64,000 nt of DNA from a virus: positions 1 to 64,000 of the IMG/VR virus record IMGVR_UViG_3300012936_000001, one strand, 5' to 3'. Below are positions 16,022 to 63,947 of this stretch, piece by piece. Position 1 is the stretch's first letter. The number at the start of each line of letters is the position of its first letter. Below the pieces are notes generated by a model. The model made no database searches. It was given only the letters and a program-made list of their open reading frames with translations, and was not told the DNA's origin. Made by a program: the position numbers and the translations under genes.

Positions 16022-16028
16022 ATATTTA
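16022..16028 (+). promoter_or_regulatory. Candidate late promoter ATATTTA
   Basis: Member of the ATA[ACT]TTA family, 18 nt before the gp25-like start. Confidence 0.55.
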
Positions 16029-16046
16029 TCTTCAAGGAGATATCAA

Positions 16047-51572: not shown

Positions 51573-52508
51573 ATGCAAGATAAGATAGATTTTTTAACAA
51601 AAGTATTTGGTAGAAGCAAGGTGCAAAACAACGGCATCGAGCTTATGGTTCCCTGCCCGGTCTGTAAAAGTGCCGACAAGATGAAGATGAATATTCGTCT
51701 AGATAACGGATTATATCATTGTTGGGTCTGTAATACAAAAGGCAGAAGTGTAGCTAGGCTTATAAAACACAAAAGACCAGACCTCGTTTCTACATGGTTT
51801 GACAAATATCAGTCTAGCTTTGCTTACAATAATTTGTCTGAATTGCAGCAAATACAAGAGCCAATAGTCATACCAGAAGACTTCGGTCTTATCATGGAAT
51901 CACTCAAAGATCCGGACGCAAAGGCTATACGTTCCTATGCAAATTCACGCGGCATAAATGATGACCTACTGTGGCGATATAGAATGGGCTATTCATCAGA
52001 ATGGCGACTCAAAAGACGGCTGATCATACCTTCATTTGACGATGAGGGAAACTTGAATTACTGGACAGGGAGAACAATAGATCCGGATAATTCTTATCGA
52101 TACTTCAACTCTCCTGGAAACAAGAAACAGATCATATTCAATGAGATCGATATAGACTGGACCAAGCCTATCTATCTGGTAGAGGGTCCTTTGGATCTGG
52201 TCAAGTGTGTCAAGCTTAATGCCACCTGCTTATTAGGTTCTTCCCTTACGGAAGACTCTCTCTTATTTTATAAGCTAGTACTATTTGCCGATGAGATTAT
52301 CCTTTGCATGGATAAGGACGCTCGAGCCAAGCAGGACAAGATAGCAGAACTTTTGATGTCTTACGATAAAGAGATATGGTGGGTCGATCCTCCCCAGGGA
52401 GACAAAGACTGGGGTGATATGAGCCCGCAAAAAGTATATGATGCCATGCAACAAAAAAACAAATACGGTCGTGATACAAAACTTTTAAGAATGATTTCGG
52501 AATTTTAG
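51573..52508 (+). CDS. DNA primase (DnaG-type, Zn finger + TOPRIM)
   Basis: CPVC...HCWVC zinc finger, RLIIP, GRTI, LVEGPLD, CMDKDA and KDWGDM. Confidence 0.88.
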   Translation: MQDKIDFLTKVFGRSKVQNNGIELMVPCPVCKSADKMKMNIRLDNGLYHCWVCNTKGRSVARLIKHKRPDLVSTWFDKYQSSFAYNNLSELQQIQEPIVIPEDFGLIMESLKDPDAKAIRSYANSRGINDDLLWRYRMGYSSEWRLKRRLIIPSFDDEGNLNYWTGRTIDPDNSYRYFNSPGNKKQIIFNEIDIDWTKPIYLVEGPLDLVKCVKLNATCLLGSSLTEDSLLFYKLVLFADEIILCMDKDARAKQDKIAELLMSYDKEIWWVDPPQGDKDWGDMSPQKVYDAMQQKNKYGRDTKLLRMISEF

Positions 52509-52510
52509 TT

Positions 52511-52517
52511 ATATTTA
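52511..52517 (+). promoter_or_regulatory. Candidate late promoter ATATTTA
   Basis: 22 nt before GTG 52540. Confidence 0.55.
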
Positions 52518-52539
52518 TTCTCGACTACAGGGGATTCAT

Positions 52540-53340
52540 GTGAAGATTACCAAAAGAAACCTCAGAAGAATTATTTCAGAAGCGATTGAGTCGAGTATGT
52601 TGTTAGAAAGTGCAAGAACATTTTGGCAATACACCGCGGTAATTACGCTGAACAATGTTGACCTATCGTCTCCCGTTGCACCTCGAAACAACAGGCTATA
52701 TCTTGTTATGGAGAGCGCTGATTGGTTTCATATGCCAAAGTATGCAAGGCTCATAAGTTCTGGTATGTTTGATAACTCTTATAAGATTGCCGAAATGGCA
52801 TCAAAAGAACGCAAGATCCTAGGAATGATGGTTGTGAAGAACCCTGATTCTGGTAGAGCCTATGGCGCAGCAGAAGTCGTTCAGGCAGCCGCAAAAAGAG
52901 GATATGGCCCAGCTCTCTATGACTTGGTGATTGGCGATCAACCGGTTGGAATATATGGCGACAGAGATTCAATTGATCCACGTGCATATGATATTTATGA
53001 TTATTACCTCAATAAAAGAGACGACATTGAAAAACTTCCGTTAGATGATCCAGAACAAAGATACACAAAAGATACAATTGATGACATGATTGCATCAACC
53101 GGTGGAAGTTATTTACCATGGAATTATATCGAAGAACCATCACATTCTCTGTGGCTTCAGGATGCAGCAAATCATGTGTATAAAGGCCCAAGACATCCTA
53201 ATATGCAAGAATATTTACAGGCTGGAGAACTTGCAAAAGAATCATTTGCAGAAAGGTGGAAGATATCCATCAAAGACGTTAACGATTTTTTTGCGAAATT
53301 AGCTTTAGATTTCTTTGATGTAAGAGATAATGAAGGCTAA
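52540..53340 (+). CDS. Hypothetical protein with an MKITKRNLRRIISE leader and a GNAT-like motif
   Basis: Leader shared with 53385. AEVVQAAAKRGYGPALYD resembles acetyl-CoA-binding motif A. Confidence 0.6.
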   Translation: MKITKRNLRRIISEAIESSMLLESARTFWQYTAVITLNNVDLSSPVAPRNNRLYLVMESADWFHMPKYARLISSGMFDNSYKIAEMASKERKILGMMVVKNPDSGRAYGAAEVVQAAAKRGYGPALYDLVIGDQPVGIYGDRDSIDPRAYDIYDYYLNKRDDIEKLPLDDPEQRYTKDTIDDMIASTGGSYLPWNYIEEPSHSLWLQDAANHVYKGPRHPNMQEYLQAGELAKESFAERWKISIKDVNDFFAKLALDFFDVRDNEG

Positions 53341-53354
53341 TAAAAGGTTATGTG

Positions 53355-53361
53355 ATACTTA
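53355..53361 (+). promoter_or_regulatory. Candidate late promoter ATACTTA
   Basis: 23 nt before ATG 53385. Confidence 0.55.
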
Positions 53362-53384
53362 TAATAAGACTTAGGAGACTACCG

Positions 53385-53795
53385 ATGAAAATCACCAAAA
53401 GACAGTTAAGAAGAATTATAAAAGAATCCATGAACAGCATGGAGCAAAGCTATATATCCAAGATAAACGAACTTCTTTCGGCCGGCGATTACGAAACACA
53501 CATGCAGGGCATTGAACTCATTAAAGCCCTCAGTGAAGAAATACCAGGATTAAAGAATCATCCGGATCTCATGATTCACTCTGCCCACGACGACGATGGT
53601 GAAGTATTTCAAATTAAACATCCTGTTTATAGATCTACTTTGACAAAAGCAGAAGCAGAATCATTCACAGAATATGATGGGGAAAAAGTATACATAGTCG
53701 ATATACACGAGTCTTCAGACGGAATTGGTACTCGTGTCGAATATGGTTATTCTTTTCCAGGTATGGACAAAGTTTATAATCTACGCCGAAGATAA
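53385..53795 (+). CDS. Hypothetical protein with an MKITKRQLRRIIKE leader
   Basis: AGGAG SD before ATG 53385. Leader shared with 52540. Confidence 0.7.
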   Translation: MKITKRQLRRIIKESMNSMEQSYISKINELLSAGDYETHMQGIELIKALSEEIPGLKNHPDLMIHSAHDDDGEVFQIKHPVYRSTLTKAEAESFTEYDGEKVYIVDIHESSDGIGTRVEYGYSFPGMDKVYNLRRR

Positions 53796-53848
53796 ATTAT
53801 AAACCTTTGTAAATTATATTATAATAAGACTATCTTACAGGAGATTCG

Positions 53849-56800
53849 ATGAAGATAGTACATATTGCTGATGTTCATTGGCGTGGTCTTACCCGTCATG
53901 AGGAATACAAAAGCTGTTTTAGAGATATGTTTGAGAAGTGTCGAGAATTAGAACCCGATGCAATAGTAATAGCTGGAGATATAGTCCATTCAAAGACACA
54001 GGGCATATCTCCAGAGCTAATTGATTGCCTTAACTGGTGGTTTACAGAGCTGAGTAGAATAAGTCGTGTACATGTACTTCTTGGAAATCATGATGGTCTT
54101 ATTCTTAATTCAGATCGACAAGACGCAATATCTCCTATTCTTAATGCCCTCAATCTTCCAAATGTACATTTGTACAAAGATTCAGATGTATACAAAGATC
54201 CAGACTTTCCGGATGTAAGATGGTGTGCGTTTTCTCCTTTTGACGAAAAAGGCTATTCGAACGTAGTACCAAGGCGTGGAAAAATAAATATTGCACTGTA
54301 TCATGGCGCAGTATGGGGATCACACACTGACATGAACTTTATGTTGGATGGTGATTGCAAAATGGACTTCTTCCGCGGGTTTGATTATGTAATGCTAGGA
54401 GATATACACAAACGTCAGCAATTAGATAAGGACGGAAGAATATGGTATTGCGGTTCTCCTATTCAGCAAAATTATGGAGAATCTGGAGAAAAAGGCTTCT
54501 TGCTATGGGACATAAAGTCAAATTCTGATTTTACTGTCGAGTTTCATCCTATTACTCACAATAATCCATTTGTAACAGTACTTTGGAAAGGATCTGTACA
54601 AGCAACCGTAATGGAATGTATGTCAGTCTGGCCAGCTGGTGCAAGATACAGAATAAGATCCACTACAGAACTAGATCCAAAATCAAAAAGAAAACTAGCA
54701 ACGGTTCTTCGGAGAGAACACGACGCACATGAAGTGGTCTATCAAATTAAATCTAATTCGAAAAATTCAGAAAGAATTAAATCCGAAAAGGTAAAAATAG
54801 AAAACCTATCGGATCCTCATACACATAAAAAGTTATTGAGAGAGTGGTGTGATGATATAGTTGAAGAAAATGGATTCTGGAAAGAGGTCGATAGAATTGT
54901 AGACGAGACCGTTCCAAAGCTATCCGTGCCAGAAGAACAAAAAGGAAATATTTGGTCAATAAGAGAAATGAACTTTGATAATACCTTTGGCTACGGAAAA
55001 GACAATATAATTAATTTTATAAAACTGCAAGGAATTGTTGGGCTGTTTGGAAGAAATAGAAGCGGAAAGTCTTCAATCCCGGGCACAATGATGTATGCTT
55101 TGTATAACTCAAATGATAGAGGTATATCGTCTGTTCAACACGTAATCAACACTAGAAAATCGAACTGTTCTGCTGATATAACTTTTTCTGTTAACGGAAA
55201 ATTATACAGGCTCGAAAGACATTCTGTAAGATACGCTGCGCGCGGAGGAAAAAACGAAGGAGCCATGTCATATCTTTCTCTCTTTGAAGTAAACGACGAA
55301 GGGCAAATAATAAAAGACCTTTCAGGAGAACAAAGAAGAGATACTGAGAAAGTATTAAGGTCACTTATAGGCGCACCAGAAGACTTTATGATGACATCTT
55401 TTGCAGCCCAAGGAAACATGAATTCCTTTATCGGTCAAGGCCCAACAGAAAGAAAAAAGACAATCTCTGGATTTATGGGCCTTGATGTATATGACCAATT
55501 TCAATCTATAGTCAGAGAAGAATCTGCTGGCGTAAAGACCATGTTAAAAAGATTGGCAGAAAAAGACTGGGTAGCGCTTATAAGATCTGAAAGATTAGAT
55601 ATATCAAATCTAGAAGAAAGTATTGAGTACCTAAATGAAAAAATACATACTTTGCAAGAAGAATATGTGTCTCTTCGAGACAAAGCGTCACATGAATCTA
55701 ATGGTGATTTTGTAGATCCTGCCGTGCTGTCTAGAAAAAAGAAGTGGGTAGAGTCAAAAAAAGATTCAATTTTAGATTCTAATCAAAAACTAGAGTCGTT
55801 GAAAGAATCGCTAAATCATAAAAAAACAATTCTTGAAAAATACGAAAATAAAAGAGACAATTTTCCTTTGGAATCATATCAGAGAAGACTAGACCTGCTT
55901 AATTCGTTAAGAAATTCAATGCAGAAAATGCAGTCAAATCTAAAGCAAGAAAAAACAATACTAAGCGGTCAAAAAAATTCTGTTTCCTTACTGAAAGAGG
56001 TGCCGTGCGGAGACGCTTTTCCAACATGTAAATTTATTGCCGAATCACACAGAAACAAGCAGTTAATCAAGGAACAAAAGATTTTAGTTCAAGATCTTGG
56101 AAAGGAAATAAAGCAAGCAAAAGAAAACCTAAAACAATTAGAAGACGAAGGCCTAAGGCAAAAGATCGAAAGATATAATGAACTATGTTCCGCCATTCAG
56201 GATATAAAACTGGATATTGTTGTGAAAGAATCGAAAATACAAAAAGAACAATCTATTGTTGAGACGACGCAAAGAGAGATAGAAAGATTGTCTGATGAAA
56301 TAACAGATATGGAATTAAGAACAGATGAAAAAAAATCAGCTGCCTTGAGAAGGCTACAGCAAAAAATGAAATCTATTAATGTAGAAATAGAGACTGGAAA
56401 GTCTGAATTGAGAAGTTATTCGCAGAAAATAGGTGAAAAGAAAGCAAAAATAAATCAATTACAAAAAGAATCTGAAGAATATGACAGGTTACAAGTAGAA
56501 TGGCAGGTATACGATTATCTTTTGAAAGCCACTAGCTGGAGAGGTATTCCGACCTATATTATGAAGAAACAATTGCCGATAATAAACGAAGAGATTTCAA
56601 ATATATTACAAGATATAGTTGGTTTTACAGTAGAGTTAGACATAACAGATAAAAAGACAGATGTGTTTATCAATTATGGAGATTCAATGCGTCCTATCGA
56701 ATGTGCGTCAGGAATGGAAAAAATGGTTTCATCCATGGCTTTGAGAGTAGCTCTTGGAAATGTTTCTAATTTGAACAAGTCTGACATGTTCATAGTCGAC

Positions 56801-56980
56801 GAAGGATTCGGGGCATTAGATCCCCAGAATCTAGAATCTGTGACTAGCCTATTAAAGAAACTTAAGTCTTATTATCGTCTAATCTTGGTGATTTCTCATG
56901 TTGATGTTATCAAAGATTCTGTTGATGATATAATAGAGATAAGAAAGTCTAGCAACGATTCAAAGGTAGTCTATGAGTGA
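53849..56980 (+). CDS. Fused Mre11/SbcD nuclease - Rad50/SbcC ATPase (gp47-gp46-like)
   Basis: Phosphoesterase motifs DVH, GDIVH, GNHD, HG and GDIH. Walker A GRNRSGKSS, coiled coil, signature ASGMEK, Walker B FIVDEGFGALD and ISH, all in one ORF. Confidence 0.92.
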   Translation: MKIVHIADVHWRGLTRHEEYKSCFRDMFEKCRELEPDAIVIAGDIVHSKTQGISPELIDCLNWWFTELSRISRVHVLLGNHDGLILNSDRQDAISPILNALNLPNVHLYKDSDVYKDPDFPDVRWCAFSPFDEKGYSNVVPRRGKINIALYHGAVWGSHTDMNFMLDGDCKMDFFRGFDYVMLGDIHKRQQLDKDGRIWYCGSPIQQNYGESGEKGFLLWDIKSNSDFTVEFHPITHNNPFVTVLWKGSVQATVMECMSVWPAGARYRIRSTTELDPKSKRKLATVLRREHDAHEVVYQIKSNSKNSERIKSEKVKIENLSDPHTHKKLLREWCDDIVEENGFWKEVDRIVDETVPKLSVPEEQKGNIWSIREMNFDNTFGYGKDNIINFIKLQGIVGLFGRNRSGKSSIPGTMMYALYNSNDRGISSVQHVINTRKSNCSADITFSVNGKLYRLERHSVRYAARGGKNEGAMSYLSLFEVNDEGQIIKDLSGEQRRDTEKVLRSLIGAPEDFMMTSFAAQGNMNSFIGQGPTERKKTISGFMGLDVYDQFQSIVREESAGVKTMLKRLAEKDWVALIRSERLDISNLEESIEYLNEKIHTLQEEYVSLRDKASHESNGDFVDPAVLSRKKKWVESKKDSILDSNQKLESLKESLNHKKTILEKYENKRDNFPLESYQRRLDLLNSLRNSMQKMQSNLKQEKTILSGQKNSVSLLKEVPCGDAFPTCKFIAESHRNKQLIKEQKILVQDLGKEIKQAKENLKQLEDEGLRQKIERYNELCSAIQDIKLDIVVKESKIQKEQSIVETTQREIERLSDEITDMELRTDEKKSAALRRLQQKMKSINVEIETGKSELRSYSQKIGEKKAKINQLQKESEEYDRLQVEWQVYDYLLKATSWRGIPTYIMKKQLPIINEEISNILQDIVGFTVELDITDKKTDVFINYGDSMRPIECASGMEKMVSSMALRVALGNVSNLNKSDMFIVDEGFGALDPQNLESVTSLLKKLKSYYRLILVISHVDVIKDSVDDIIEIRKSSNDSKVVYE

Positions 56981-61246: not shown

Positions 61247-62086
61247 ATGTCAAAAAAATCCCACAACAAAAAAAGAAATGTCGGGATTATATACGAGCAA
61301 CTGATACAATATATATCTGATCGCCTCGTCAATAATCAGACCACTAGTGCTAACAAGGCAAAGAGAATAGTAAAAAAGCATTTTGTCAAAGATAGTCAGT
61401 TGTATAAAGAGTATAGGTTGTTTATGGCTCTATCAGATACTCATTCGGTAGATCCATCTTTGGCAACACAGATAATTTCAGAAGCTCGAAGAGGTTCTAG
61501 AATACACGACAAAGAAAGATTAAAGAAAGAAAAGTCTATTTTAATAAGAGATATAAATTATCATCTAGGCCAAGATTTTTATAAAAGAAAAATAAAAGAA
61601 TATAAAAAGTTTGCTACAATTCAAGTGCTCTTGAACGAATGGCGATGCGGAAATATATGTGTTGAATATGAAAAAAAATTACACGAAATGCTTACAGAAA
61701 AAAAATCAATTACAAGCTTAGAAGAAGAGAAAAATAAAGATGTTAATAGACTAGTATTGAAATTGGCAGAAGAAAAATTCAATAAAAAGTATTCGAGTTT
61801 GTTAAATGAACAACAAAAAGCAATATTGAACGAATATGTTTTTTCTCAATCCAGCAAAGACTATACAAAGATAAAATCTTCTATCAAAAAAATAAAAGAA
61901 AAAACTGTCGACGCATTGACCAAATATTCTATAGATTGTAAAAATGAAACAGTCAGCAAAAAGATTCAGCCAGTTATAACAGAAGTTCGAAATTTAAGTG
62001 AAAAAAATATAAACGACGAAACTATAAAAAAAGTTTTATCTATAGTTCAATTAAGAAATGAACTTTTGGAGAATAACAATGAGTGA
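61247..62086 (+). CDS. Head-module hypothetical protein
   Basis: HNKKRNVGIIYEQL...F.K.S.LYKEYRLF. Lies between portal and protease. Confidence 0.65.
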   Translation: MSKKSHNKKRNVGIIYEQLIQYISDRLVNNQTTSANKAKRIVKKHFVKDSQLYKEYRLFMALSDTHSVDPSLATQIISEARRGSRIHDKERLKKEKSILIRDINYHLGQDFYKRKIKEYKKFATIQVLLNEWRCGNICVEYEKKLHEMLTEKKSITSLEEEKNKDVNRLVLKLAEEKFNKKYSSLLNEQQKAILNEYVFSQSSKDYTKIKSSIKKIKEKTVDALTKYSIDCKNETVSKKIQPVITEVRNLSEKNINDETIKKVLSIVQLRNELLENNNE

Positions 62087-62684
62087 TTTGAAATTATTAA
62101 CTGAGTTTAATGCATGGGAATTTGACAAAGAAAAAATGTTGAACGAAAGAACCAGTTCAAACAGATACGTTATGAAAGGTATTCTTCAAAAGGCAGACAC
62201 TCTAAACCAAAATGGAAGAATATATCCGCAGGATATCTTGGAAAGAGAGGTGCGAAATTATCAAAAATTTATTGCCGAAAATAGAGCGCTTGGCGAATTG
62301 GATCACCCGGATTCTTCTGTAGTAGAGTTGAAAAATGCTTCCCATATTGTTCGAGAAGCTTATATGGACGGAAAGATATGTTATGGAACAGTAGAAATTC
62401 TTGATACTCCTGCTGGCAAGATTCTTAAGTCTTTGGTTGACAACGGAGTGACATTAGGTATATCGTCCAGAGGCGTAGGGTCTACGAGATCTGAAGGAGA
62501 TTATCAGGTTGTTCAAGACGATTTTCAACTTATCTGCTGGGATTTCGTGTCGGAACCATCAACCCCCGGCGCCTTCATGATGAAAGAAGCAAAAGAAATA
62601 AAGCCATCCGATCTTAAGAAAGTATTTAATAAATCGGATAGAATTGATAGAATATTCAACAACATATTAGATTGGAGAAAGTAA
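62079..62684 (+). CDS. Prohead core protease (T4 gp21-like)
   Basis: NQNGRIYP, ALGELDHP (His), ILDTPAG, GISSRGVGS (Ser) and DFVSEPSTPGA. GGAG SD before 62079. Confidence 0.93.
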   Translation: MSDLKLLTEFNAWEFDKEKMLNERTSSNRYVMKGILQKADTLNQNGRIYPQDILEREVRNYQKFIAENRALGELDHPDSSVVELKNASHIVREAYMDGKICYGTVEILDTPAGKILKSLVDNGVTLGISSRGVGSTRSEGDYQVVQDDFQLICWDFVSEPSTPGAFMMKEAKEIKPSDLKKVFNKSDRIDRIFNNILDWRK

Positions 62685-63170: not shown

Positions 63171-63587
63171 ATGAAATTAAAACGTTCAGTTCTAAAACAG
63201 CTAATAAAAGAATGCCTAGTAGAGATTCTCATAGAGGGAATAGATTCCGAAGGACAAGAAGACCGTTTGGTTGAAGCAGCTGTCTCTTCTAGAAAACAGC
63301 AATTCAAAAAACCTCAAAACGACTATGTACCAGCATCATCTAAGAGTCAAAGAAAACCTATGATTAATGAACATGCTGTCTCTGCCATGGCCGGCGGTGA
63401 CAGCATTATGGCAGATATATTTCGTGACACCGCCTCAACGACCCTGCGAAATCAAGGCATGAAGAACGAAAACGCAAGAATACCTGCCGACAATGCCGCC
63501 GCTGTCGTTGCAGATCACGATCCAACAGAACTTTTCGAAGGTGCAGGAAACTGGGCAAAATTAGCATTTATGGGATCAGAAAAATAA
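63171..63587 (+). CDS. Hypothetical head-module protein with an MKLKRSVLKQLIKE leader
   Basis: Leader related to the MKITKRxLRRIIxE motif. Contains several L/I-x-E sites. Confidence 0.65.
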   Translation: MKLKRSVLKQLIKECLVEILIEGIDSEGQEDRLVEAAVSSRKQQFKKPQNDYVPASSKSQRKPMINEHAVSAMAGGDSIMADIFRDTASTTLRNQGMKNENARIPADNAAAVVADHDPTELFEGAGNWAKLAFMGSEK

Positions 63588-63650: not shown

Positions 63651-63947
63651 ATGAGAAGAAAAAGATCCATGAGTGCAAAAGCATTCCGAAATTTTGTTAT
63701 TAGAGAAGCCAGAAAACTTCAAAAAGAAGCGGTATCTGGAAAGATCGAAGACGTTTCAAAAGTTAAGGCAAAAGAAGTTGATGCAGATGGATATGCTGAT
63801 ACGTTAGAGCAAGATATAGATTATATTAAAGCACTGAAAATCAAAGAAAATAAGATACGTAGACAGCATGCAAGAATGAAGCGCCAATTGAAAATGATCC
63901 AAGAAAGAAAAAGAAGATTGCGTGCTAGAGTTCTTAAGAACATATAA
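63651..63947 (+). CDS. Basic coiled-coil hypothetical protein (head module)
   Basis: AGGAG SD. SAKAFRNFVIRE is a degenerate version of the leader. Confidence 0.65.
   Translation: MRRKRSMSAKAFRNFVIREARKLQKEAVSGKIEDVSKVKAKEVDADGYADTLEQDIDYIKALKIKENKIRRQHARMKRQLKMIQERKRRLRARVLKNI

Follow-up and report, generated by a model that had tools for sequence, protein, structure and literature searches.

A shared N-terminal leader on small acidic proteins of an uncultured marine T4-like phage: a candidate capsid-targeting propeptide

The first 64,000 nucleotides (nt) of the IMG/VR virus record IMGVR_UViG_3300012936_000001, referred to below as the window, contain two adjacent open reading frames, here named ORF1 and ORF2, whose products open with a near-identical leader peptide. 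We describe this leader, the locus in which it was found, its occurrence in this genome and in other viruses, and its candidate role in directing proteins into the phage head. The source is a single-contig record of 167,118 bp with 39% G+C and an estimated completeness of 62%. The phage, which is uncultured, marine and T4-like, is of the T4-core type: it encodes a portal protein of the Portal_T4 family, a prohead protease of the Peptidase_S77 family, a gp23-like capsid protein and a large terminase, along with a tail sheath and baseplate proteins resembling gp25 and gp6. The nearest capsid homologue from a cultured phage is that of Flavobacterium phage immuto, with 43.6% identity; going by this homologue, the host probably belongs to the marine Bacteroidota.

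The ORF1-ORF2 locus

ORF1 (52540..53340, 266 amino acids (aa), GTG start) and ORF2 (53385..53795, 136 aa, ATG start) are both encoded on the plus strand, as are the two conserved genes that flank them. The left flank is a DnaG-type primase (51573..52508) with the Pfam domains DNAG_N, Toprim and zinc-ribbon, and the right flank is a fused, SbcCD-like Mre11-Rad50 (53849..56980), assigned by the Pfam families Metallophos and SMC_N/SbcC and by synteny in relatives. The leader of ORF1, (M)KITKRNLRRIISE, is encoded at 52540..52581 and ends in I-S-E, with a second motif of this type, L-L-E, at residues 21-23. The leader of ORF2, MKITKRQLRRIIKE, is encoded at 53385..53426 and ends in I-K-E. Together they give the common sequence MKITKR(N/Q)LRRII(S/K)E. 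When the two proteins were compared by BLASTP they were similar solely in residues 1-18, of which 13 are identical; the remaining part of each, an acidic protein body, is referred to as the cargo. The positions of both ORFs and of their flanks, like the protease and the head-module examples given by the first-pass annotation of this DNA, were all correct on re-examination.

A promoter-like element precedes each ORF on the plus strand. It reads ATATTTAT at 52511..52518, 21 nt before the start of ORF1, and ATACTTAT at 53355..53362, 22 nt before the start of ORF2, where it overlaps a TATAAT hexamer. The shorter form ATA[CT]TTA, which had been reported ahead of each ORF, is indeed present, 22 nt upstream of ORF1 (ATATTTA, 52511-52517) and 23 nt upstream of ORF2 (ATACTTA, 53355-53361). 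This 7-mer is common in the genome as a whole, with 46 copies on the plus strand and 28 on the minus strand, 74 altogether. For the 8-mer ATA[CT]TTAT, 12 of the 24 plus-strand copies are found 5-45 nt upstream of gene starts, where the background is 8.6%, and its two variants rank first and second in gene-start proximity among 336 composition-matched 8-mers. ATA[CT]TTAT is a genuine upstream element.

The genes behind ATA[CT]TTAT are mostly structural and include those for a gp25-like baseplate protein, a scaffold-like protein, a head-tail adaptor and the tail sheath, as well as the gene that comes after that of the capsid protein. The element is also found ahead of an unassigned gene of 162 aa, located past the sheath genes, and of a gene for a 1459-aa protein. 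Examples of such sites are positions 16022-16029 of the window and positions 65178, 68979, 69723, 70167, 73216, 79509 and 82935 of the genome. Because the element precedes structural genes, late expression is plausible, and ATA[CT]TTAT is a candidate for the late promoter in this group of phages, differing from the TATAAATA of T4. The T4 late promoter itself was rejected as the upstream element of this phage, TATAAATA having 6 copies only in the genome. A separate, sigma70-like class of promoters, TTGTAA-N17-TATAAT, is found before other genes, e.g. at 99305, 111815, 118245 and 138877.

The ORF2 cassette is flanked by a direct repeat of 12 nt, TATAATAAGACT, which is present only twice in the 167-kb genome. 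Both copies are on the plus strand, one upstream of ORF2 (53360..53371) and one in the sigma70-like promoter region before Mre11-Rad50 (53820..53831), and each is followed by an AGGAGA-type ribosome-binding site. The pair may represent a duplicated promoter and 5' untranslated region that enables gain or loss of ORF2, and recombination between the copies could delete ORF2.

The content of this locus varies among related phages. In 17 IMG/VR relatives with primases 34-41% identical to that of the window, the order primase, Mre11-Rad50, large terminase is kept, the terminase being located some 0.5-0.8 kb past Mre11-Rad50 and usually separated from it by one or two small genes. The gap between primase and Mre11-Rad50 is empty in eight of the 17. 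Exactly one gene, of 127-144 aa, occupies it in five others (L010, L011, L014, L016 and L018); this gene belongs to a different cargo family, with the N-terminus MKISKSQLRRMIRE, and has ATAATATTTAT 20-25 nt upstream. In these five relatives Mre11-Rad50 has a sigma70-like promoter of its own, TTGTAC-N17-ATAATA. Both the leader peptide and the upstream motif are kept in phages whose primase is about 40% identical to that of the window. A further relative, L020, has a gene of 349 aa with an internal ITESQLRRIIYDE segment. Across the relatives the locus holds 0, 1 or 2 cassettes. Mre11-Rad50 is one fused protein of 1043-1051 aa in the window phage and in most relatives, and in L013 and L020 the two parts are separate genes, of about 203-215 aa and 859-894 aa.

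The same ORF1-ORF2 pair was found in a Tara Oceans scaffold (L138), in which the leader is kept and the ORF1 protein is 97% identical. At the DNA level, window and L138 are 98-99% identical from the primase to about position 53561, 65-70% identical in the 3' half of ORF2 (53562-53795) and about 85% identical in Mre11-Rad50. Since the drop in identity falls in the middle of ORF2, a recombination break maps to this gene. In L140, homologues of ORF1 (89% identity, leader MKLAKTQLRKIIKE) and ORF2 come one after the other, and this pair is preceded not by the primase but by other leader genes, one of which has a TTG start.

Distribution and conservation of the leader

A genome-wide scan for the leader had been suggested by the first-pass annotation. 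We searched the 167-kb genome in six frames with a loose regular expression for the leader and obtained ten matches, every one of them N-terminal: all ten fall on start codons near the beginning of an open frame, so the shared leader is not a product of chance. The matches are at 52540 and 53385 (ORF1 and ORF2), at 63171 (weaker), at 107239, at 134906 and in five genes at 162-164 kb, and the leader opens at least nine genes in this genome. In seven of the ten matches it is lengthened to 27 residues by ...EEYSRLKRRGLIxE, which adds a second L-I-x-E.

The nucleotide sequences of the paralogous leaders are identical in 28-39 of 42 positions, and in a codon alignment the differences are mostly synonymous. 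Leucine is encoded by CTC, TTA, CTT or CTG, and isoleucine by ATT, ATC or ATA. As the codon changes are mostly synonymous, the peptide is under selection, and the similarity is not simply the outcome of recent DNA copying. The leader is basic and amphipathic, with a charge of +4 to +5.

Leader copies in other viruses were drawn from IMG/VR, using a degenerate DNA pattern. The pattern retrieved 108 stretches, many of them in contigs of 100-290 kb, and the leader genes are frequently lined up in tandem, with as many as 10 in an array. From these stretches 190 distinct complete leader proteins were obtained, with lengths of 41-458 aa and a median of 102 aa. Together with the leader proteins of this genome the set comprises 198 proteins, and the cargos fall into 146 BLASTP clusters. 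The idea of a portable module carried by otherwise unrelated proteins, put forward in the first-pass annotation from the two ORFs and the head-module genes, is thereby borne out. The cassette of promoter plus leader, which had been proposed along with it, is not general: the upstream motif precedes only 3 of the 190 IMG/VR leader genes. The other leader genes of the window phage are mostly arranged in operon-like arrays.

The conservation of the final glutamate was examined by a rescan in which residues 1-12 only were matched and residues 13-14 were left free. Glu-14 is present in 206 of 208 distinct copies, and the two exceptions both carry Glu at position 15. Residue 13 is variable. A second motif of the form h-h-x-E (h, hydrophobic; x, any residue) is found within residues 15-30 of 110 of the 208 copies.

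Automatic gene calls often miss the leader. The ORF2 call of the source record (P0004) is 121 aa long and begins at an internal methionine, Met-16, and the calls for an ORF2 homologue (P0009, L138:1909-2271) and for the ORF1 homologue of L140 (P0002, L140:833-1465) also begin downstream. Because such calls start at an internal start codon, database proteins of this kind will under-report the leader. Several leader copies were also found in a record labelled as a giant-virus metagenome-assembled genome, IMGVR_UViG_GVMAG-S-1030632-100_000001 (L028, L067 and L092); this record may be a misbinned jumbo-phage fragment.

Among cultured phages, tblastn searches with ORF1, with P0017 and P0020 and with a 30-aa leader gave no match to the leader or to the ORF1 family, and blastn with an 81-nt leader returned matches at noise level only. 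In the literature, searches with leader strings and with capsid targeting sequence in combination with metagenomes found the leader undescribed. The principle is known from T4; in the searchable literature we found no account of the leader itself or its scale, nor of the acidic cargo or the variable slot.

Head module and cargo proteins

A T4 gp21-type prohead protease, which we presume to be the leader-removing enzyme, is encoded on the plus strand at 62079..62684, in a frame that opens at 62058. The claim that a gp21-like protease is found here was confirmed by a match to Peptidase_S77 with an E-value of 2e-26; the protein also matches phrog_207, head maturation protease. Peptidase_S77 was found above the curated cut-off in all five large leader-bearing contigs tested, and the proteases of these five are 70-86% identical to that of the window. 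The N-terminus of the window protease, MSDLKLLTE (62079-62105), has L-T-E at residues 7-9, which parallels the LIE-9 noted for T4 gp21; this Glu is not kept in all five relatives, whose variants include LLQE, VITD and LLTS. A complex prediction of the protease with residues 1-45 of ORF2 scored 0.02, which gives no answer and counts neither way.

Leader-like N-termini had also been noted on two genes of the head module, and here, too, the earlier observation stands. The gene at 63171..63587 (plus strand), a candidate for a prohead-core protein, begins with MKLKRSVLKQLIKE. Its homologues adjoin the protease gene in five relatives and have the N-terminus MAKxxRSxLKxLxKECLVEILxEG. As they keep a related start, similarity links the leader of the cassettes to the opening residues of a conserved head-module protein. 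The body of the 63171 protein is acidic. The small gene at 63651..63947 (plus strand) has a weaker leader-like segment, AKAFRNFVIRE, and the genes in its place in the relatives have segments like LLKKLVLEE and LRALVLAE. In the capsid protein, LLRE/A is located about 27 residues before a conserved VRRVF block and is a plausible maturation site of the gp23 type. A gp24-type vertex gene, i.e. a second capsid-like gene, was sought for comparison of its N-terminus, and none was found in the 62%-complete record.

Neither ORF1 nor ORF2 has a match in Pfam or PHROG. ORF2 has nine homologues with 66-93% identity, and the leader is kept, down to 66% identity, wherever the gene call extends to the N-terminus. 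Its AlphaFold2 (AF2) model has a predicted local distance difference test (pLDDT) value of 79 and consists of two helices, one of them at residues 5-31, and a small sheet; a Foldseek search of PDB and BFVD with this model gave no significant match. The single-sequence structure model of ORF1 (pLDDT 34) is of no use.

ORF1 belongs to a large uncharacterised viral family, for which 593 representative clusters were found at E<=1e-3. The conserved core of the family is located around GYGPxLYD...DR...PLDD. Its consensus start is MxxLRxxIRxxxxE with E14 at least 90% conserved, and most members have a leader-like helix. A motif of the form h-h-x-E is found in residues 1-30 of 101 of 149 representatives, against 13 in a control window. 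In their genomes the members occur as tandem paralogues and next to unrelated genes carrying the same local leader, which is LLKEYIxLLLxE in L141 and MKITRKQLRRIILE and similar in L144. An alignment of 55 family members gave an empty PDB profile search, and the 55 members had no match in Pfam or PHROG. An assignment of ORF1 as a GNAT acetyltransferase, suggested by the GYGPALYD motif and by ESM-Atlas neighbours (14-55% GNAT-labelled), was rejected for want of profile support: the 55 members gave zero matches to the Acetyltransf families even at E<=10.

The cargos are acidic as a rule. Their isoelectric point (pI) is below 6 in 175 of 190 (92%), with a median of 4.6 and a value of 4.9 for both ORF1 and ORF2, and proteins with a pI below 6 make up 32-39% of the proteins of the genome. 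No convincing Pfam domain was found in the 80 longest cargos. With no such domain, and with most of them acidic, unlike the basic internal proteins of T4, the word 'effector' that had been attached to these proteins lacks a basis. A Tara phage (L144:10635-13340) encodes a 901-aa protein with a Phage_lysozyme domain and the leader-like start MYLNENKIRQLIKE, near four leader genes of the MKITxxQLR type; it is possibly a head-packaged wall-degrading protein.

Interpretation and comparison with known systems

We consider it probable that the leader is a capsid-targeting propeptide of the T4 type that is removed by a protease. The leader M-K-I-T-K-R-x-L-R-R-I-I-x-E would steer the attached protein into the core of the assembling prohead, and the gp21-type (Peptidase_S77) protease would then remove it by cutting after Glu-14 of I-x-E; shortly after it, many copies have a second h-h-x-E, a putative back-up site. 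Two such cargo genes would be ORF1 and ORF2, in a variable slot and each with an ATA[CT]TTAT of its own. Speaking for this scheme are the confinement of the leader to N-termini, selection on the peptide, the nearly invariant Glu, the many unrelated cargos, the accompanying protease, the variability of the locus and an upstream element in common with structural genes, all of them observed here. The late timing, the attachment to the core, the cut and the persistence in the virion are inferred. The cargo could be injected with the DNA or act as a disposable component of the core.

A number of observations weigh against this proposal. The motif [LI]-x-E is by itself frequent, occurring 1.28 times per 100 aa and in the first 30 residues of 68 of 175 proteins. 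The leader is strongly basic and, beyond M-K and the h-h-x-E ending, is without similarity to MKTYQEFIAE, the T4 capsid targeting sequence (CTS) (PMC8442874), and the cargos are acidic whereas the internal proteins of T4 are basic (PMC9026906). Phage immuto, the nearest cultured phage, has no match to the loose leader pattern. Further points on the same side also favour an alternative that we regard as unlikely, namely that the proteins are cytoplasmic and keep the N-terminal helix as a working part, e.g. for oligomerisation or for binding of nucleic acids or partners, so that it is never cleaved or packaged. Both ORFs sit among replication and recombination genes, and the region upstream of ORF2 holds a TATAAT hexamer that is shared with, and resembles, the neighbouring sigma70-type promoter of Mre11-Rad50. 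In the ORF2 model the leader is not a detached peptide but runs on within the one continuous helix of residues 5-31. The ORF1 family keeps a similar helix down to about 25% identity, and the helix may therefore be integral to the ORF1 fold. It is hard to explain, however, why a retained helix should be found on more than 140 unrelated and mostly very small proteins, and the nearly absolute Glu at the end of the conserved block, with its variable neighbour at residue 13, indicates a site of processing. The co-occurrence with Peptidase_S77 and the resemblance to the N-terminus of a head-module protein also speak against this alternative.

The acidity of the cargos, which is shared by the body of the 63171 protein with its related leader, could alternatively mean that the leader does target the prohead and is cut off, and that the cargos are accessory or disposable, scaffold-like parts of the core, comparable to T4 gp67 and gp68, that are not delivered to the host. 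In T4, core proteins are cut to fragments which leave the head (PMC9026906). Structural parts would, however, be expected to be conserved, yet the cargos form 146 unrelated clusters and occur in 0-2 copies at the locus, a variability more typical of arms-race genes, and ORF2 has a predicted, folded alpha/beta body. We find this explanation improbable. That the conserved 5' segment is mainly a recombination module acting at the DNA level, by which cassettes are shuffled, and has no role in peptide targeting, would fit the changing number of cassettes at the locus, the different upstream neighbourhood of the ORF1 homologue in L140 and the 12-nt repeat around ORF2. It is nevertheless very unlikely, given that the peptide is kept while the leaders differ mostly at synonymous sites, also in relatives with primases of about 40% identity, and that the sole break mapped at the locus, against L138, falls in mid-ORF2 and outside the leader; such a module could in any case coexist with a targeting role. 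Basic amphipathic helices can bind membranes or nucleic acids, and a leader of this charge might direct proteins not to the capsid but to the membrane, the nucleoid or an export route. On inspection it has neither a hydrophobic core nor a signal-peptidase motif, and its gp21-type ending, its resemblance to the head-module N-terminus and its occurrence together with Peptidase_S77 all leave another destination with scarcely any probability.

Beyond the proposed capsid-targeting propeptide, a wider and more tentative reading, for which we think the odds unfavourable, is that of an open-ended capsid-cargo system of uncultured marine T4-like and jumbo phages. MKITKRQLRRIIxE and the looser forms MxxLRxxIRxxILE and LLKEYIxLLLxE would then be the marks of small acidic proteins that lack any known domain and belong to hundreds of families. 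These would be packed into the head and, delivered together with the DNA, would serve as anti-defence or takeover factors of the first wave, perhaps as DNA mimics; hot spots such as the junction of primase and Mre11-Rad50 would be where their cassettes come and go. If this were true, the sequence by itself would suffice to predict virion-delivered proteins. If the tag works as that of T4 does, it identifies by sequence only a very large and fast-changing set of capsid-carried proteins of marine phages, at present without any annotation. It would then carry over to hundreds of families a mechanism that three or four proteins of T4 are known to use, would point to candidate anti-defence factors and would provide a ready-made packaging tag for engineering such phages. 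A practical consequence concerns gene callers, which often choose an internal Met and lose the leader, as seen for ORF2 and for homologues of both ORFs.

The closest known system is the CTS of T4 and the T-even phages, carried by IPI, IPII, IPIII and Alt and removed by gp21. The gp21 protease cuts after Glu in L/I-x-E, the ten N-terminal residues of T4 IPIII suffice for packaging, and the internal proteins of T-even phages are diverse except for the CTS (PMC9026906; PMC3012670). The leader is like the CTS in being a short peptide at the extreme N-terminus that ends in L/I-x-E, in genomes that encode a gp21-family Peptidase_S77 protease and head proteins with related propeptides. In both cases the tagged proteins are small, unrelated to one another and little conserved, and their genes differ from one related phage to the next; the leader proteins, with their median of 102 aa, are similar in size to the T4 internal proteins. 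Unlike the CTS, the leader has 14 residues, or 27 in one subclass, where T4 has 10; it opens at least nine genes in this genome and about 190 distinct IMG/VR proteins, compared with three to four in T4; and about half of its copies have a second motif of the cut type. ORF1 and ORF2 also differ in being located in a neighbourhood of replication genes, with a promoter-like element of their own.

The giant phages phiKZ, 201phi2-1 and SPN3US, which have proteases related to gp21, offer a second comparison. In many of their ejection or inner-body proteins a short motif is cut behind its Glu, and their propeptides have redundant cut sites (PMC9026906), just as many leader copies have a second motif of the cut type. 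They differ in using motifs of the S/A/G-x-E type on paralogous families, with no single near-identical portable leader, and in not being T4-core phages with Portal_T4 and gp23-like capsid genes.

The variable slot itself can be compared with the ip loci of T-even phages, a comparison made by description, from general background and two papers (PMC3012670, PMC9026906). The slot described here differs in position, being located between primase and Mre11-Rad50, and in that the mapped break is inside ORF2 and not in the leader. As in the ip loci, the number and identity of the cassettes differ between conserved flanks, while each cassette has a conserved 5' leader.

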